From Escherichia coli (lineage in GTDB: Bacteria > Pseudomonadota > Gammaproteobacteria > Enterobacterales > Enterobacteriaceae), in the NCBI RefSeq assembly GCF_016903815.1, contig NZ_CP069973.1: 64,000 nt of DNA; one strand, given 5' to 3'. The first letter of the stretch is position 1. Each line of letters begins with the position of its first letter. Under the pieces are notes generated by a model. The model did not search any database. It was given only the letters and a program-made list of their open reading frames with translations, and was not told the origin of the DNA. Shown one piece after another: positions 5,325-64,000 of this stretch. A program made the translations under genes and the position numbers.

Positions 5325-5357
5325 GCCGGGTGAGGTATTCACGCCGCATCCGGCAAG
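5325..5357. repeat. REP (repetitive extragenic palindrome) element
   Basis: tcacgccgcatccggca is the reverse complement of the GCCGGATGCGGCGTGA REP core. Confidence 0.6.
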
Positions 5358-17557: not shown

Positions 17558-20238
17558 ATATCCTCATGAAATTCTTCAAGTTCAGGGGCTGTTTGCTGGG
17601 GAAGTGTAACACGAAAACAGGCACCACCTTCCGGTCGGTTGAATGCGGTAATGGTGCCGCCGTGTACATCCACTATCGCCCGACAAATTGCCAACCCAAG
17701 CCCTACACCCGGTACCGCCGACTCTTTATTCCCGCGAGCAAACTTATCAAATATCGTCTGCTCCTGGCCTGGTGGAAGACCGGGGCCGTTATCCCAGACA
17801 TCCAGTTGTAGATTTTCGCCCTCAACGTGGGCATTGATACCAATTTCGGCCTGCGCCCCCGCGTATTTCACCGCGTTCTCCAGCAGATTAATCAGCACCC
17901 GTTCAAAGAGTGGCCCGTCAACGTGGATTAAGGTCAGCGGTTCTGGCAGAGAAAGATTGATGGTCGACGATAAACCCGGTTCCAGCATTTGCAGCGCGCT
18001 GCCGACCACTTCTTCCAGCGTTAACCACTCTTTCTTCAAATTAAAGCCGCCGGACTGAATTCGTGCCATATCCAGTAGATTATTCACCAGTCGGGTGGTG
18101 TTCAGCACATGCTGACGAATCTCGCTGGCCTGGCGGGCGTGGGGCGATCCTTCGCTCGCCAGATCGAGCGTTAAGATTTCTGCCTGACCGAACAGCACCG
18201 TGAGCGGAGTGCGTAAATCATGCGAAAGCGCCGCCAGCAGGGCGTTGCGGATCTGTTCACGTTCGCTTGCCATCCGCGCCTGTTCTTCGCTGGCGGTCAG
18301 TGTCAGCCGCTCAAGGGCATTGGCGACTAACAACGTAAATGTCTCCAGCAGGCGCTGCTGTTCCGGGATCATCAACTGGCGCAGATTCCCCGGTTCCACC
18401 ACCACCAGTCCGTAGGTTTTCTCGCCGCTTTTTAGCGGCAAAATCTGGTACGGTACACCGGGTAACGTGTCGGTGCCCGCGCCCGCAGGCAGACCTTTAT
18501 CAAAACTCCACTGCGCGATGGCATCGTCCCACGGGGTCATTCCTTGCGGATGTGTTAACGGCTGCAATTTACCGTTGTCATCGGGTAACAGCACCTGACT
18601 GCGGGCATGAAACGTGGAGGCAATAAACTGTTCGCTGGTGGCGGCGATGTCCTGCGGACTGCGGCCCACCGCCAGAGCTTTCGACATTTCATATAAGTGC
18701 CGTGTGCGTTGCTCGCGGTAACGGGCTACCCGCGCCTGATAACGCACGCCCGCAGTAAGGTTCCCGATCACCAGCCCGACGGTTAACATCACCGCGAAGG
18801 TCAGCAGATATTGCACATCAGAGACGGCAAGCGTGCCGCGTGGGGCGATAAAAAAGAGATCGAAACTCACCACATTAATGACGGTGGCGACCACCGAAGG
18901 CCAGCGCCCATAAAACAGTGCCACCACCACCACGCCAAGCAGATACAGCATCACCAGGTTGGCGGCATCAAACGCCATCAGCCACTGCATGGCAATTAAG
19001 GTGATAACGGCGCATAACGCGGCGGCAACCACGCATCCCTGAATCTGTACCCGCCACTTGTCTTTAAAAGAGCGGCTATCCGGCGCGTTGTTAATCGTGC
19101 GGGCGGGTGGTTCATCAAGCGCGACCAGCACCTGATCGAGATCGGGGGCGATGCGCGCCAGTCGGTCAGCAAACGTTTCCCGACGCCACCAGCGGCGCGA
19201 GGCTGGGCGACCGAGAATAATCTTGCCGAGATTATGTTCACGGGCATAACGCACTACCGCTTTCTCTTCCGCTGGATCAGAAAGTGTTGCCGTCTCTGCG
19301 CCCAGCTCCTGCGCCAGACGTAAGGCGCTGAGAATTGCCCGACGTTTTTTCTCCGGTAAGCGATGCAGGGTAGGGGTTTCAACATACACCGCGTGCCAGA
19401 CGCTACCCAGCCGTGACGCCAGCCGCGCCGCCGCGCGGACCAGTTTCTCACTACCAGTGTTATGGCCGATGCATAAAAGGATCGCGTCGCGCGTGTGCCA
19501 GACTTTCTCTTCGCCAGGATGCCCCCGCCAGGCGCGCATTTGCTCATCTACGCGATCGGCAGTACGGCGCAGTGCCAATTCGCGCAGGGCGATCAGATTA
19601 CCTTTACGAAAAAAATGTTCAATGGCGCGTTCCGCCTGCCCGGCAATATAGACTTTACCTTCTTTCAGCCGTTGACGCAGATCGTCCGGGGGCAAGTCCA
19701 CCAGCACCACGTCGTCGGCGGCATCGAAAAAAGGATCGGGCACGGTTTCTCGTACCTGAATTCCGGTGACGCCACTGACCACATCATTCAGGCTTTCCAG
19801 ATGCTGAACGTTGACGGTAGTGAAAACATCAATGCCCGCTTCCAGCAGTTCTTCGATGTCCTGCCAGCGTTTAGGATGACGAGAACCTGGCGCATTACTG
19901 TGCGCCAGTTCGTCCATTAAGATCAGCGCCGGACGGCGGGCGAGGGCGGCATCGAGATCAAACTCGCTGATATGCCGCCCACGGTACGCCTGGCGTTTGG
20001 GCGGCAGAACAGCCAGCCCTTCCAGCATTGCGGCGGTATCTTTCCGCCCGTGGGTTTCAACCACGCCAACCACAATATCCAGCCCTTGCGCCCGCAGTCG
20101 CTGGGCCTCTGCCAGCATCGCCCAGGTCTTTCCGACGCCTGCGCAGGCACCGAAGAAAACTTTCAGCTTCCCCCGATGCGGCGCGGCAGTTTGTTCCAGC
20201 AGACGATCGGGGTCGGGACGTAAAGGTTCGTTATTCAT
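17554..20238 (-). CDS. kdpD: sensor histidine kinase KdpD
   Basis: 894 aa from [16 protein letters not shown]...; N-terminal Kdp sensor/Usp domain, four transmembrane segments, HisKA (HDLRTPL) and HATPase domains; overlaps kdpE (ATGA) and kdpC. Confidence 0.95.
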
Positions 20239-48544: not shown

Positions 48545-50310
48545 TGAAATTGCCAGTCAGAGAATTTGATGCAGTTGTGATTGGTGCCGGTGGCGCAGGT
48601 ATGCGCGCGGCGCTGCAAATTTCCCAGAGCGGTCAGACCTGTGCGCTGCTCTCTAAAGTCTTCCCGACCCGTTCCCATACCGTTTCTGCGCAAGGCGGCA
48701 TTACCGTTGCGCTGGGTAATACCCATGAAGATAACTGGGAATGGCATATGTACGACACCGTAAAAGGTTCGGACTATATCGGTGACCAGGACGCGATTGA
48801 ATATATGTGTAAAACTGGGCCGGAAGCGATTCTGGAACTGGAACATATGGGCCTGCCGTTCTCGCGTCTTGATGATGGTCGTATCTATCAACGTCCGTTT
48901 GGCGGTCAGTCGAAAAACTTCGGCGGCGAGCAGGCGGCACGCACTGCGGCGGCTGCTGACCGTACCGGTCACGCACTGTTGCACACGCTTTATCAGCAGA
49001 ACCTGAAAAACCACACCACTATTTTCTCCGAGTGGTATGCGCTGGATCTGGTGAAAAACCAGGATGGCGCGGTGGTGGGTTGTACTGCACTGTGCATCGA
49101 AACTGGTGAAGTGGTTTATTTCAAAGCCCGCGCTACCGTGCTGGCGACTGGCGGGGCAGGGCGTATTTATCAGTCCACCACTAACGCCCACATTAACACT
49201 GGCGACGGTGTCGGCATGGCTATCCGTGCAGGCGTACCGGTGCAGGATATGGAAATGTGGCAGTTCCACCCGACCGGTATTGCAGGTGCGGGCGTCCTGG
49301 TCACCGAAGGTTGCCGTGGTGAAGGCGGTTATCTGCTGAACAAACATGGCGAACGCTTTATGGAGCGTTATGCGCCGAACGCCAAAGACCTGGCGGGCCG
49401 TGACGTGGTGGCGCGTTCCATCATGATCGAAATCCGTGAAGGTCGCGGCTGTGATGGTCCGTGGGGGCCACACGCAAAACTGAAACTTGACCATCTGGGT
49501 AAAGAAGTTCTTGAATCCCGTCTGCCGGGTATCCTGGAACTCTCCCGCACCTTCGCTCACGTTGATCCGGTGAAAGAGCCGATTCCGGTTATCCCAACCT
49601 GTCACTACATGATGGGCGGAATTCCGACTAAAGTGACCGGTCAGGCGCTGACGGTGAACGAGAAAGGCGAAGATGTGGTGGTTCCGGGGCTGTTCGCGGT
49701 AGGTGAAATTGCCTGCGTATCGGTACACGGCGCTAACCGTCTTGGCGGTAACTCGCTGCTGGACCTGGTGGTCTTTGGTCGCGCAGCGGGTCTGCATCTG
49801 CAAGAGTCTATTGCCGAGCAGGGCGCACTGCGCGATGCCAGCGAGTCTGATGTAGAAGCGTCTCTGGATCGCCTGAATCGCTGGAACAACAACCGTAACG
49901 GTGAAGATCCGGTGGCGATCCGTAAAGCACTGCAAGAATGTATGCAGCATAACTTCTCGGTCTTCCGTGAAGGTGATGCGATGGCGAAAGGGCTTGAGCA
50001 GTTGAAAGTTATCCGCGAGCGTCTGAAAAATGCCCGTCTGGATGACACTTCCAGCGAGTTCAACACCCAGCGTGTTGAGTGCCTGGAACTGGATAACCTG
50101 ATGGAAACGGCGTATGCAACAGCTGTTTCTGCCAACTTCCGTACCGAAAGCCGTGGCGCGCATAGCCGCTTCGATTTCCCGGATCGTGATGATGAAAACT
50201 GGCTGTGCCACTCCCTGTATCTGCCAGAGTCGGAATCCATGACGCGCCGAAGCGTCAACATGGAACCGAAACTGCGCCCGGCATTCCCGCCGAAGATTCG
50301 TACTTACTAA
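48544..50310 (+). CDS. sdhA: succinate dehydrogenase flavoprotein subunit
   Basis: 588 aa from [24 protein letters not shown] (FAD-binding GxGxxG); ATG overlaps the sdhD stop (TGATG). Confidence 0.95.
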
Positions 50311-50325
50311 TGCGGAGACAGGAAA

Positions 50326-51042
50326 ATGAGACTCGAGTTTTCAATTTATCGCTATAACCCGGATGTTGATGATGCTCCGCGTATGCAGGATTACACCCTG
50401 GAAGCGGATGAAGGTCGCGACATGATGCTGCTGGATGCGCTTATCCAGCTGAAAGAGAAAGATCCCAGCCTGTCGTTCCGCCGTTCCTGCCGTGAAGGTG
50501 TGTGCGGTTCCGACGGTCTGAACATGAACGGCAAGAATGGTCTGGCCTGTATTACCCCGATTTCGGCACTCAACCAGCCGGGCAAGAAGATTGTGATTCG
50601 CCCGCTGCCAGGTTTACCGGTGATCCGCGATTTGGTGGTAGACATGGGACAATTCTATGCGCAATATGAGAAAATTAAGCCTTACCTGTTGAATAATGGA
50701 CAAAATCCGCCAGCTCGCGAGCATTTACAGATGCCAGAGCAGCGCGAAAAACTCGACGGGCTGTATGAATGTATTCTCTGCGCATGTTGTTCAACCTCTT
50801 GTCCGTCTTTCTGGTGGAATCCCGATAAGTTTATCGGCCCGGCAGGTTTGTTAGCGGCATATCGTTTCCTGATTGATAGCCGTGATACCGAGACTGACAG
50901 TCGCCTTGACGGTTTGAGTGATGCATTCAGCGTATTCCGCTGTCACAGCATCATGAACTGCGTCAGTGTATGTCCGAAGGGGCTGAACCCGACGCGCGCC
51001 ATCGGGCATATCAAGTCGATGTTGTTGCAGCGTAATGCGTAA
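50326..51042 (+). CDS. sdhB: succinate dehydrogenase iron-sulfur subunit
   Basis: 238 aa with Cys clusters for the 2Fe-2S, 4Fe-4S and 3Fe-4S centres. Confidence 0.95.
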   Translation: MRLEFSIYRYNPDVDDAPRMQDYTLEADEGRDMMLLDALIQLKEKDPSLSFRRSCREGVCGSDGLNMNGKNGLACITPISALNQPGKKIVIRPLPGLPVIRDLVVDMGQFYAQYEKIKPYLLNNGQNPPAREHLQMPEQREKLDGLYECILCACCSTSCPSFWWNPDKFIGPAGLLAAYRFLIDSRDTETDSRLDGLSDAFSVFRCHSIMNCVSVCPKGLNPTRAIGHIKSMLLQRNA

Positions 51043-51241
51043 TTAAATGTTGATGCCGGGGAAATCCCCGGCTATTCAGGAAATCTTTAAAAACTGCCCC
51101 TGACACTAAGACAGTTTTTAAAGGTTCCTTCGCGAGCCACTACGTAGACAAGAGCTCGCAAGTGAACCCCGGCACGCACATCACTGTGCGTGGTAGTATC
51201 CACGGCGAAGTAAGCATAAAAAAGATGCTTAAGGGATCACG

Positions 51242-54043
51242 ATGCAGAACAGCGCTTTGAAAGCCTGGTTGGACTCTTCTTACCTCTCTGGCGCAAACCA
51301 GAGCTGGATAGAACAGCTCTATGAAGACTTCTTAACCGATCCTGACTCGGTTGACGCTAACTGGCGTTCGACGTTCCAGCAGTTACCTGGTACGGGAGTC
51401 AAACCGGATCAATTCCACTCTCAAACGCGTGAATATTTCCGCCGCCTGGCGAAAGACGCTTCACGTTACTCTTCAACGATCTCCGACCCTGACACCAATG
51501 TGAAGCAGGTTAAAGTCCTGCAGCTCATTAACGCATACCGCTTCCGTGGTCACCAGCATGCGAATCTCGATCCGCTGGGACTGTGGCAGCAAGATAAAGT
51601 GGCCGATCTAGATCCGTCTTTCCACGATCTGACCGAAGCAGACTTCCAGGAGACCTTCAACGTCGGTTCATTTGCCAGCGGCAAAGAAACCATGAAACTC
51701 GGCGAGCTGCTGGAAGCCCTCAAGCAAACCTACTGCGGCCCGATTGGTGCCGAGTATATGCACATTACCAGCACCGAAGAAAAACGCTGGATCCAACAGC
51801 GTATCGAGTCTGGTCGCGCGACTTTCAATAGCGAAGAGAAAAAACGCTTCTTAAGCGAACTGACCGCCGCTGAAGGCCTTGAACGTTACCTCGGTGCAAA
51901 ATTCCCTGGCGCAAAACGCTTCTCGCTGGAAGGCGGTGACGCGTTAATCCCGATGCTTAAAGAGATGATCCGCCACGCTGGCAACAGCGGCACCCGTGAA
52001 GTGGTTCTCGGGATGGCGCACCGTGGTCGTCTGAACGTGCTGGTGAACGTGCTGGGTAAAAAACCGCAAGACTTGTTCGACGAGTTTGCCGGTAAACATA
52101 AAGAACACCTCGGCACGGGTGACGTGAAATACCACATGGGCTTCTCGTCTGACTTCCAGACCGATGGCGGCCTGGTGCATCTGGCGCTGGCGTTTAACCC
52201 GTCTCACCTTGAGATTGTCAGCCCGGTAGTTATCGGTTCTGTTCGTGCCCGTCTGGACAGACTCGATGAGCCGAGCAGCAACAAAGTGCTGCCAATCACC
52301 ATCCACGGTGACGCCGCAGTGACCGGGCAGGGCGTAGTTCAGGAAACCCTGAACATGTCGAAAGCGCGTGGTTATGAAGTTGGCGGTACGGTACGTATCG
52401 TTATCAACAACCAGGTTGGCTTCACCACCTCTAATCCGCTGGATGCTCGTTCTACACCGTACTGTACTGATATCGGTAAGATGGTTCAGGCACCGATTTT
52501 CCACGTAAACGCGGATGATCCGGAAGCCGTTGCTTTTGTGACCCGTCTGGCGCTCGATTTCCGTAACACCTTTAAACGTGATGTCTTTATCGACCTGGTA
52601 TGCTACCGCCGTCACGGCCACAACGAAGCCGACGAGCCGAGCGCAACCCAGCCGCTGATGTATCAGAAAATCAAAAAACATCCGACGCCGCGCAAAATCT
52701 ACGCTGACAAGCTGGAGCAGGAAAAAGTCGCGACGCTGGAAGATGCCACCGAGATGGTTAACCTGTACCGCGATGCGCTGGATGCTGGCGATTGCGTAGT
52801 GGCAGAGTGGCGTCCGATGAACATGCACTCTTTCACCTGGTCGCCGTACCTCAACCACGAATGGGACGAAGAGTACCCGAACAAAGTTGAGATGAAGCGC
52901 CTGCAGGAACTGGCTAAACGCATCAGCACGGTGCCGGAAGCAGTTGAAATGCAGTCTCGCGTTGCCAAGATTTATGGCGATCGCCAGGCGATGGCAGCCG
53001 GTGAGAAACTGTTCGACTGGGGCGGCGCGGAAAACCTTGCTTACGCCACGCTGGTTGACGAAGGCATTCCGGTTCGCCTGTCGGGTGAAGACTCCGGTCG
53101 CGGTACCTTCTTCCACCGCCACGCGGTGATCCACAACCAGTCTAACGGTTCCACTTACACGCCGCTGCAACACATCCATAACGGCCAGGGCGCGTTCCGT
53201 GTCTGGGACTCCGTACTGTCTGAAGAAGCAGTGCTGGCGTTTGAATACGGTTATGCCACCGCAGAACCACGCACTCTGACTATCTGGGAAGCACAGTTCG
53301 GTGACTTCGCTAACGGTGCTCAGGTGGTTATCGACCAGTTCATCTCCTCTGGCGAGCAGAAATGGGGCCGGATGTGTGGCCTGGTGATGTTGCTGCCGCA
53401 CGGTTACGAAGGGCAGGGACCGGAGCACTCCTCCGCGCGTCTGGAACGTTATCTGCAACTTTGCGCTGAGCAAAACATGCAGGTGTGCGTACCGTCTACC
53501 CCGGCACAGGTTTACCACATGCTGCGTCGTCAGGCGTTGCGCGGGATGCGTCGTCCACTGGTCGTGATGTCGCCGAAATCCCTGCTGCGTCATCCGCTGG
53601 CGGTATCCAGCCTCGAAGAACTGGCGAACGGCACCTTCCTGCCAGCCATCGGTGAAATCGACGAGCTTGATCCGAAGGGCGTGAAGCGCGTAGTGATGTG
53701 TTCTGGTAAGGTTTATTACGACCTGCTGGAACAACGTCGTAAGAACAATCAACACGATGTCGCCATTGTGCGTATCGAGCAACTCTACCCGTTCCCGCAT
53801 AAAGCGATGCAGGAAGTGTTGCTGCAGTTTGCTCACGTCAAGGATTTTGTCTGGTGCCAGGAAGAGCCGCTCAACCAGGGCGCATGGTACTGCAGCCAGC
53901 ATCATTTCCGTGAAGTGATTCCGTTTGGGGCTTCTCTGCGTTATGCAGGCCGCCCGGCCTCCGCCTCTCCGGCGGTAGGGTATATGTCCGTTCACCAGAA
54001 ACAGCAACAAGATCTGGTTAATGACGCGCTGAACGTCGAATAA
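51242..54043 (+). CDS. sucA: 2-oxoglutarate dehydrogenase E1 component
   Basis: 933 aa; recognised as SucA. Confidence 0.95.
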
Positions 54044-62967: not shown

Positions 62968-63007
62968 TTATTGCGCTAAAAGTGTATCTAAGGGGGGCAA
63001 TAATTTC

Positions 63008-63033
63008 AGGCCATCTTCGGATGGCCTGAGATT
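63008..63033. terminator. terminator hairpin between mngB and the convergent rtcB-like gene
   Basis: caggccatcttcggatggcctg, a perfect 9 bp stem with tetraloop. Confidence 0.5.
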
Positions 63034-63111
63034 GTTGATAAACAAGTTTGTTAGCTTACGCAGATACCAGATTTGACCTGCGTGAGAACCGCAGGCCATT
63101 TATCATTTCAG

Positions 63112-64000
63112 TTACCCCTTAAACGTTAACCACGGTCGAAATCTGACCGCTGGCTGAATTAATCCGGCTTCTTGTTGGGCTTCGATAACCGGACCAATAT
63201 CTTTATAAGCCGCTGGCGCTTCTTCAAGACGTCGTTCTTCACGCAATGTGACGCATTGCCACGGCAGCGTTGACTCTTCAGTCGCGCTTGAGCGCATGGC
63301 CTGTCGACGCTGGCTGCGTCCTGCTCCGTGACTGCATGACCACAGCCACTCCGGGTTGCCGCAACCGACTGCAAGCCACGAATAATCGCCCATTGAACCG
63401 GGGATTAATGCCAGATCGCCCACTCGTGCCGGTGTTGCACCTTTGCGATGAATATTCATTTCATGCTCGCGAAGGATGATGTTATGTGGTACATCCACCA
63501 CCAGATGCGAATTGTCCTGATGAAAGAGATTGGCGAGACATACGCGCACCATTTCGGCAATTGTGACGCGATTTAACCACGCGTAACGCGCCGCCATTCC
63601 TATCGCTTGTAGATATTCCTCCGCCAGTCCGCCTGCCAGACCATATAACCCGCTTTGTGGATGTTTATGTCCGGTGGGCCATTCAGCACGGGCGCGATCC
63701 ATCCAGCGTCTTCCGACGTAAAAGCCAACATCTCGCGATCCACTGTGGATCATCACCACAATATCGCCTGTTTTCAGCCCTTGTTGCCAGGCTACATGGC
63801 GATCAACCACGCTATCAACGACCTGAAGTTCAATAAAATGATTACCTGAACCCGGCGTACCCAGACAAGGATCGCGGAGTAATGCGCGGTCCGTTGCCAG
63901 CAGGGCGGGTGGGGCATAACGCGAATGACTGTTATGCTCGTTAAGCCCAATGCAGCGGTCAATCTCTTGTACCATTCGGGGGATATTCGTGCGTGTCCAG
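63112..64000 (-). CDS. RtcB-family RNA ligase paralogue, C-terminal part; the N-terminus lies beyond the window end
   Basis: Translation contains RtcB signatures GSGNHF, HSGSR, IPGSMG and CSHGAGR and ends ...RPWLTFKG, parallel to canonical E. coli RtcB as I recall it; the minus-strand frame is open to the window edge. Confidence 0.75.
   Translation of the reverse strand, partial: WTRTNIPRMVQEIDRCIGLNEHNSHSRYAPPALLATDRALLRDPCLGTPGSGNHFIELQVVDSVVDRHVAWQQGLKTGDIVVMIHSGSRDVGFYVGRRWMDRARAEWPTGHKHPQSGLYGLAGGLAEEYLQAIGMAARYAWLNRVTIAEMVRVCLANLFHQDNSHLVVDVPHNIILREHEMNIHRKGATPARVGDLALIPGSMGDYSWLAVGCGNPEWLWSCSHGAGRSQRRQAMRSSATEESTLPWQCVTLREERRLEEAPAAYKDIGPVIEAQQEAGLIQPAVRFRPWLTFKG

Follow-up and report, generated by a model that had tools for sequence, protein, structure and literature searches.

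The 199-nt spacer between sdhB and sucA, studied here in a 64-kb stretch of Escherichia coli DNA (the window, i.e., the whole stretch analysed), is the already-studied sdhB-sucA control region of K-12 in a natural allele free of REP elements. It is known biology: its function is established for K-12, and therefore no new kind of element is added here. We consider it very probable that the spacer is an intercistronic control region of the sdhCDAB-sucABCD transcript and that it acts as sense-strand RNA; the functional data behind this reading come from K-12 or Salmonella, not from REP-free strains.

Organization and folding of the spacer

The spacer occupies positions 51043 to 51241 on the sense strand of the operon (Table 1). 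A preliminary sequence-only reading had described it as 199 bp long, with at least four inverted repeats and no strong T-run. Its length was borne out by the gene boundaries, all four repeats were found in the spacer sequence (4/4), and a terminator scan of positions 50500-51700 returned 0 sites. Absent from that reading are a fifth inverted repeat, which abuts the Shine-Dalgarno sequence, a long-range helix predicted over the sucA ribosome-binding site, the GlnZ/Hfq target (see below) and the earlier characterisation of the region.

Table 1 Coordinates of the spacer features and flanking genes in the window
Feature	Position	Strand	Sequence or remark
sdhB	50326-51042	+	
sdhB stop codon	51040-51042	+	TAA; spacer begins at 51043
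Inverted repeat 1	51055-51062 / 51065-51072		GCCGGGGA / TCCCCGGC
Hairpin 1	51055-51072	+	GCCGGGG-AAAU-CCCCGGC; 7 bp, 6 of them G-C; -14.9 kcal/mol
Hairpin 2	51078-51129	+	AGGAA-UCUUUAAAAACUG...CAGUUUUUAAAGG-UUCCU; A/U-rich stem of 5 + 13 + 2 bp
Inverted repeat 2	51082-51096 / 51112-51126		AATCTTTAAAAACTG / CAGTTTTTAAAGGTT
Inverted repeat 3	within arms 51123-51137 / 51154-51168		GCGAGC / GCTCGC
Hairpin 3	51132-51159	+	GCGAGCC...GCUCGC
Predicted long-range helix, 5' strand (anti-Shine-Dalgarno)	51162-51169	+	GUGAACCC
Inverted repeat 4	51173-51180 / 51185-51192		CACGCACA / TGTGCGTG
Hairpin 4	51173-51192	+	CACGCACA-UCAC-UGUGCGUG
GlnZ sRNA target site	51198-51209	+	AUCCACGGCGAA; complementary to GlnZ seed UUGCCGUGGAAA
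Inverted repeat 5	51211-51217 / 51225-51231		TAAGCAT / ATGCTTA
Hairpin 5	51211-51231	+	UAAGCAU-AAAAAAG-AUGCUUA; ends at Shine-Dalgarno
Shine-Dalgarno region	51231-51240	+	AAGGGAUCAC; includes GGG-UCAC, 3' strand of predicted long-range helix
sucA	51242-54043	+	ATG at 51242-51244

RNA structure prediction, proposed as a check in the sequence-only reading, showed the spacer to be far more stable than its shuffles: the minimum free energy was -70.8 kcal/mol versus -47.3 +/- 4.5 for 200 dinucleotide shuffles (z = -5.2), and 0 of the 200 were as stable. By z-score the spacer ranked fifth among 427 segments of 199 nt across the 64 kb (top ~1%), and the segment ranked second, starting at 51001, overlaps it. 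Rfam covariance models gave 0 matches between positions 50000 and 52500, even at E <= 10.

Other parts of the window were also strongly structured. Across the 64 kb a single Rfam match reached gathering score, that to the Hfq-binding sRNA STnc490 (positions 2820-2943, 146 bits), which coincides with the most structured segment, 2701. The segments 19801-19999 and 63001-63199 folded unusually well too (z = -6.1 and -5.7, respectively), the latter opening with a perfect hairpin, CAGGCCATC...GATGGCCTG.

Conservation and covariation in the Enterobacterales

A genome scan with the SucA N-terminus yielded 80 Enterobacterales loci, with spacers of 68-660 nt, many of them near 200 nt. RNAalifold on 15 genera returned the same five hairpins and the long-range helix, and a covariance model built on that alignment (R1) recognized the element in 72 loci, always ending at the sucA ATG. 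In the 72-locus alignment, which was fitted to the model's own structure and so inflates pairing, 94.2% of the cells were paired versus 31-45% with slid partners. Pairs with double-sided changes numbered 24 versus 8-13 after sliding, and the covariation score was 0.268 versus at most 0.068, with 0 of 500 shuffles reaching 0.268.

All five local hairpins were conserved with compensatory changes across the Enterobacterales, the covariance model covering hairpins 2-5 and hairpin 1 being compared separately (see below). Double-sided changes occurred in 10 of 17 pairs of hairpin 2 (helix 1; 96% of cells paired), 3 of 5 pairs of hairpin 3 (helix 2; 98%), 7 of 7 of hairpin 4 (helix 5) and 2 of 4 of hairpin 5 (helix 6). 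The long-range helix (helix 3) was paired in 92% of cells with a double change in one pair only; since it is nearly invariant, covariation cannot support it. Its 5' strand, GUGAACCC, was invariant among 15 Enterobacteriaceae sequences (alignment A2), and the helix was not predicted in Yersinia, Pantoea or Serratia.

Insertions around the hairpins or in their loops left the stems unbroken. An ERIC-like element of ~127 nt occupied the apical loop of hairpin 2, with the stem intact, in several genera, among them Klebsiella oxytoca, Enterobacter, Franconibacter, Phytobacter, Siccibacter and Citrobacter amalonaticus; in the spacers carrying it (L083, L022, L030, L028, L021, L062 and L008) the stem was lengthened and unbroken. 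By its likeness to the ERIC consensus this repeat is probably ERIC; in E. coli it was detectable at a median of 7 places per genome. Two Citrobacter loci (L008 and L014) carried an insertion of ~130 nt with inverted ends between the GlnZ site and hairpin 5, which matches the published position of the GlnZ site (-166) in S. Typhimurium. The window allele, with neither the ERIC-like nor the Citrobacter-type insertion, is the bare form of the element. In Acerihabitans arboris (L078, 1433-1500) the spacer was only 68 nt long and the covariance model gave no match; to judge from this sequence, the structured element is lost from, or was never present in, that lineage.

About 268 of the 2686 paired cells (~10%) were G-U or U-G. 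Read on the opposite strand, or as a DNA palindrome, these cells would not pair, and the structure is therefore that of a sense-strand RNA. This bears on the reading of the inverted repeats as DNA elements, i.e., IHF, Nac or ArcA operators or bending sites, or the core of an internal suc promoter, a reading that we consider very unlikely. In its favour, the literature places in this region a suc promoter that IHF represses and to which Nac binds, the palindrome of hairpin 2 is rich in A/T, and by eye TGgTAGTAT at 51191-51199 resembles an extended -10. The structure is, however, specific to the sense strand, and the compensatory changes preserve pairing rather than sequence; on the wobble pairs and these changes, a DNA palindrome or operator was rejected as the main explanation. 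A consensus promoter scan of the spacer found no sigma-70-like site, although the RNA element and a promoter may still coincide in part. The internal suc promoter expected from the sequence-only reading has a counterpart in the K-12 literature, where an 'internal terminator and secondary promoter' were described in the operon (Conway et al. 2014, PMC4161252) and balance the expression of its two halves (PMC4161252; PMC6393394), but it was not recovered as a consensus promoter in the scan.

The conserved multi-stem architecture, the invariant unpaired stretches and the helix over the Shine-Dalgarno sequence would also suit a metabolite riboswitch, whose ligand might, e.g., come from the TCA cycle or be related to CoA, and which would resemble the candidate sucA motif of Burkholderiales, where stems overlap the Shine-Dalgarno sequence too (PMC1950547). 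We hold this to be extremely unlikely: no Rfam model matched at E <= 10, there was no sign of a ligand, and the GlnZ/Hfq site, the Shine-Dalgarno sequence and the RNase III stem (see below) already account for the invariant stretches. The sucA (Burkholderiales), sucA-II (Pseudomonadales, RF01758) and sucC (gamma-Proteobacteria, RF01759) motifs share with the spacer a place upstream of suc genes and a conserved structure whose stems overlap the Shine-Dalgarno sequence, but they differ in lineage and architecture; membership in any of the three was rejected on the 0 cmscan matches in 50000-52500.

Hairpin 1 and the alleles of the sdhB-proximal segment

Of 5426 complete E. coli genomes, 5425 carried the region, and strain 7/2 matched the window with 100% identity. 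Over its last 165 nt, from 51077 to 51241, the spacer aligned with K-12 positions 758541-758705 at 165/165 identical nucleotides; the first 34 nt (51043-51076), proximal to sdhB, differ from K-12. Directly after the sdhB stop codon K-12 carries three REP sequences, and other strains up to six, where the window allele has a 34-nt non-REP segment with hairpin 1, GCCGGGGAAATCCCCGGC. No REP-like motif was found in the spacer, and the only one in the whole 64 kb lies at 5342. The comparison with known REP or processing sites that the sequence-only reading suggested was thus answered in two ways: REP elements are present in K-12 and missing from this allele, while the K-12 processing region is retained in the identical 165 nt.

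The REP-free allele was found in 1760 of 5426 genomes, about one third of sequenced E. coli, with 13KWH46 among its carriers besides 7/2. The exact variant of the window accounted for 104 genomes, and the commoner REP-free variant had one extra C in the 3' arm of hairpin 1. REP copy number accounts for the E. coli spacer lengths of 199 nt (strain 7/2, the same as the window), 300 nt (K-12), 349 nt (PCP06238), 361 nt (A1.S1.18), 456 nt (ECONIH2) and 550 nt (CFT073) (loci L001, L003, L004, L005, L007 and L090). The length in CFT073 ruled out the REP-free allele as a B2/UPEC marker. The segment directly after the sdhB stop codon (51043-51076 in the window) is a REP/BIME hot spot, and in E. coli SK0832 (L006, 1-1308) the transposase gene of IS1397, of the IS3 family, lies inside the sdhB-sucA spacer; IS1397 targets BIMEs.

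The conserved part of the spacer also exists in a second E. coli haplotype (L004 and L005; window region 51132-51192), with GCGGAC/GUCCGC instead of GCGAGC/GCUCGC in hairpin 3, so that the stem is preserved by compensatory changes, and with a hairpin 4 loop 8 nt longer. This haplotype resembles E. albertii (L007) and S. arizonae, a likeness in sequence that suggests an old polymorphism or recombination.

Hairpin 1 aligned with GCCGGGGAAG(N)GATTCCCCGG of Salmonella arizonae and Citrobacter; being orthologous there, it is ancestral, and K-12 acquired its REP clusters in its place. It was unique in the window and had a median of one place per E. coli genome. A GC-rich hairpin followed the sdhB stop codon in nearly every genus, its sequence differing between genera. 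Within 75 nt of the stop codon, a hairpin at least as stable as that of the window occurred in 95% of 79 Enterobacterales spacers versus 16% of shuffles; a control with coding sequence was less clean than the shuffles, with 53% of homologous sucA windows reaching -14.9 kcal/mol, probably because these windows are one homologous site.

The spacer is a hot spot for small mobile repeats in other strains and genera, and the hairpins might on that ground be taken for decayed REP, ERIC or similar repeats without a function of their own. This seems to us hardly credible, as hairpin 1 is single-copy and orthologous across Escherichia, Salmonella and Citrobacter, the 64 kb hold just the one REP-like motif, hairpins 2-5 covary across the order and the insertions spare the stems. 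For hairpin 1 in particular, an origin as a REP remnant was ruled out by its single copy, its orthology across genera and its lack of a REP motif.

We propose that hairpin 1 serves the sdhCDAB part of the transcript as a barrier to 3' exonucleases, as a leaky terminator or as both, because in K-12 a Term-seq 3' end within the spacer, at 758531, sits 5 nt past the last REP hairpin, with hairpin 2 following ~11 nt on (PMC7815308). Uniform read-through with no internal ends, the outcome that would speak against the sequence-only reading, is accordingly not what K-12 presents. It is possible, though we doubt it, that hairpin 1 is mainly a leaky intrinsic terminator, and that termination after sdhB, rather than RNase III cleavage and an exonuclease block, sets the sdh:suc ratio. 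Consistent with such termination are the GC-rich 7-bp stem just past the stop codon, the internal terminator that Conway et al. describe in K-12 (PMC4161252) and the 4-6 U that follow the positional counterparts of hairpin 1 in L075, L076, L079, L047, L049, L055, L070 and L086; Pantoea also has a U-tract. From their sequences, these counterparts look like true terminators in those genera. The tail of hairpin 1 in the window, UAUUCAGG, has no U-tract, however, and no terminator was called by the scan, so the hairpin has the GC-rich stem-loop of a canonical intrinsic terminator but not its U-tract. Most genera likewise lack the tract, 4-6 U being found in a minority, and the matching 3' end of K-12 follows a REP hairpin and not a canonical terminator (PMC7815308). 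The terminator and exonuclease-block roles are, besides, compatible with each other.

REP/BIME elements act as stabilisers of mRNA 3' ends in polycistronic operons, e.g., malE-malF. Hairpin 1 is like them in being a stable extragenic, intercistronic stem-loop whose position is taken in K-12 by the last REP, with a mapped 3' end; it differs in being single-copy, without the REP consensus and vertically inherited from the ancestor of Escherichia, Salmonella and Citrobacter.

Processing of the transcript and the sucA leader

The K-12 region (Cunningham & Guest 1998; Conway 2014; Miyakoshi 2022; Walling 2022) is the same locus and shares hairpins 2-5, the GlnZ site, the purine-rich element and the Shine-Dalgarno sequence with the window allele. 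It differs in having three REPs in a 300-nt spacer in place of one non-REP GC hairpin in 199 nt, and the K-12 features inside the REP part are absent from the window allele. In K-12 a read-through sdhCDAB-sucABCD transcript of ~10 kb is cut by RNase III in the spacer. Three RNase III sites in the region, all upstream of the GlnZ site, are attributed to Cunningham & Guest (1998) as cited in PMC9731577, and RNA-seq of rnc mutants gave a strong RNase III-dependent signal at 758515 (PMC5371410). This peak falls inside the third REP, and at least one of the three sites could lie in REP duplexes missing from this allele. The processing or partial-termination region setting the sdh to suc ratio, as proposed from the sequence, is thus supported by the K-12 literature on RNase III, the terminator and the 3' ends.

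In the window allele hairpin 2 is most likely the RNase III substrate, because it is the only stem ~20 bp long; the placement of the cleavage follows the K-12 literature. The yardstick for such substrates is dsRNA that is largely regular over some two turns, roughly 20 bp, which may be compared with the 5 + 13 + 2 bp of hairpin 2, interrupted by a 1-nt bulge and a small internal loop. The 3' base of this hairpin, AAAGGUUCC, was identical in 72 of 72 aligned loci.

Downstream lies the target of GlnZ, an sRNA derived from the glnA 3' UTR and induced by nitrogen limitation, whose seed pairs with the sucA leader, so that SucA is lowered and SucB is not (PMC9731577). GlnZ acts on the leader with Hfq under nitrogen limitation, and its repression needs RNase III; in rnc14, too, SucA is lower and SucB is not. 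A 15-nt purine-rich sequence by the sucA start is needed for both translation and GlnZ repression (PMC9731577). In the window allele the complement of the GlnZ seed was intact (duplex energy -18.3 kcal/mol) and predicted to be largely unpaired, and the 8-nt core of the site occurred once on the + strand of the 64 kb. The purine-rich loop of hairpin 5 probably corresponds to the 15-nt element.

The long-range helix, in which GUGA-CCC (51162-51169) pairs with GGG-UCAC (51233-51240), was predicted with a pairing probability of ~0.9. A second Term-seq 3' end of K-12, at 758707, is the T of the sucA ATG (PMC7815308). It corresponds to position 51243 of the window, directly after the long-range helix, and may be the end of a stable RNA fragment that stems from the leader.

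The events on the REP-free transcript may be pictured as follows. Read-through transcription from the sdh promoter would cross the spacer, and RNase III would cut hairpin 2 (~20 bp), separating the sdh and suc halves of the transcript. Hairpin 1, directly upstream, would then protect the new sdhCDAB 3' end by blocking 3' exonucleases, a function that in K-12 apparently falls to the last REP; we infer that it may also terminate transcription weakly, the stability of the sdhCDAB mRNA thereby being set. After processing, the sucA mRNA would have a structured 5' leader made of hairpins 3-5, in which the GlnZ site, left unpaired, and the purine-rich element for Hfq and translation would lie exposed by the ribosome-binding site, while the predicted long-range helix GUGA-CCC/GGG-UCAC could mask the ribosome-binding site.

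A further idea, which we rate as unlikely, is that the 165-nt leader is an Enterobacteriaceae-wide cis-regulatory RNA outside Rfam that works as a processing-triggered switch. With hairpin 2 whole, its invariant 3' base GGUUCC (51122-51127) would be occupied, and the invariant GUGAACCC would mask the sucA Shine-Dalgarno sequence GGGAUCAC; an RNase III cut in hairpin 2 would free GGUUCC, which would capture GUGAACC and so unmask the ribosome-binding site. In folding predictions on the window sequence, the probability of the masking helix fell from ~0.9 to <0.1 for 5' ends at 51085-51121, and the Shine-Dalgarno sequence became more open. Some Enterobacteriaceae loci, but not all, showed the same effect, and no locus outside the family did; the switch is therefore kept as a low-probability idea. 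If true, it would explain both the drop of SucA but not SucB in rnc mutants and the need of GlnZ repression for RNase III.

RNase III cleavage of 5' leaders alters translation in adhE, pnp and phage lambda N, and aceE is also a target of GlnZ and RNase III. The sucA leader is like these in its long stem cut by RNase III, in the lowering of SucA and not SucB in rnc14 and in the RNase III dependence of GlnZ repression; it differs in that its proposed unmasking switch is predicted from folding.

The hairpin architecture of the spacer covaries across the Enterobacterales, without an Rfam family of its own. Its REP-free allele, present in one third of E. coli, is a natural test of what the REP elements contribute, and the switch gives a hypothesis, open to experiment, of how sucA translation could rise after cleavage by RNase III. 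As established for K-12, the spacer balances succinate dehydrogenase against 2-oxoglutarate dehydrogenase and, through GlnZ, ties the TCA cycle to nitrogen status.
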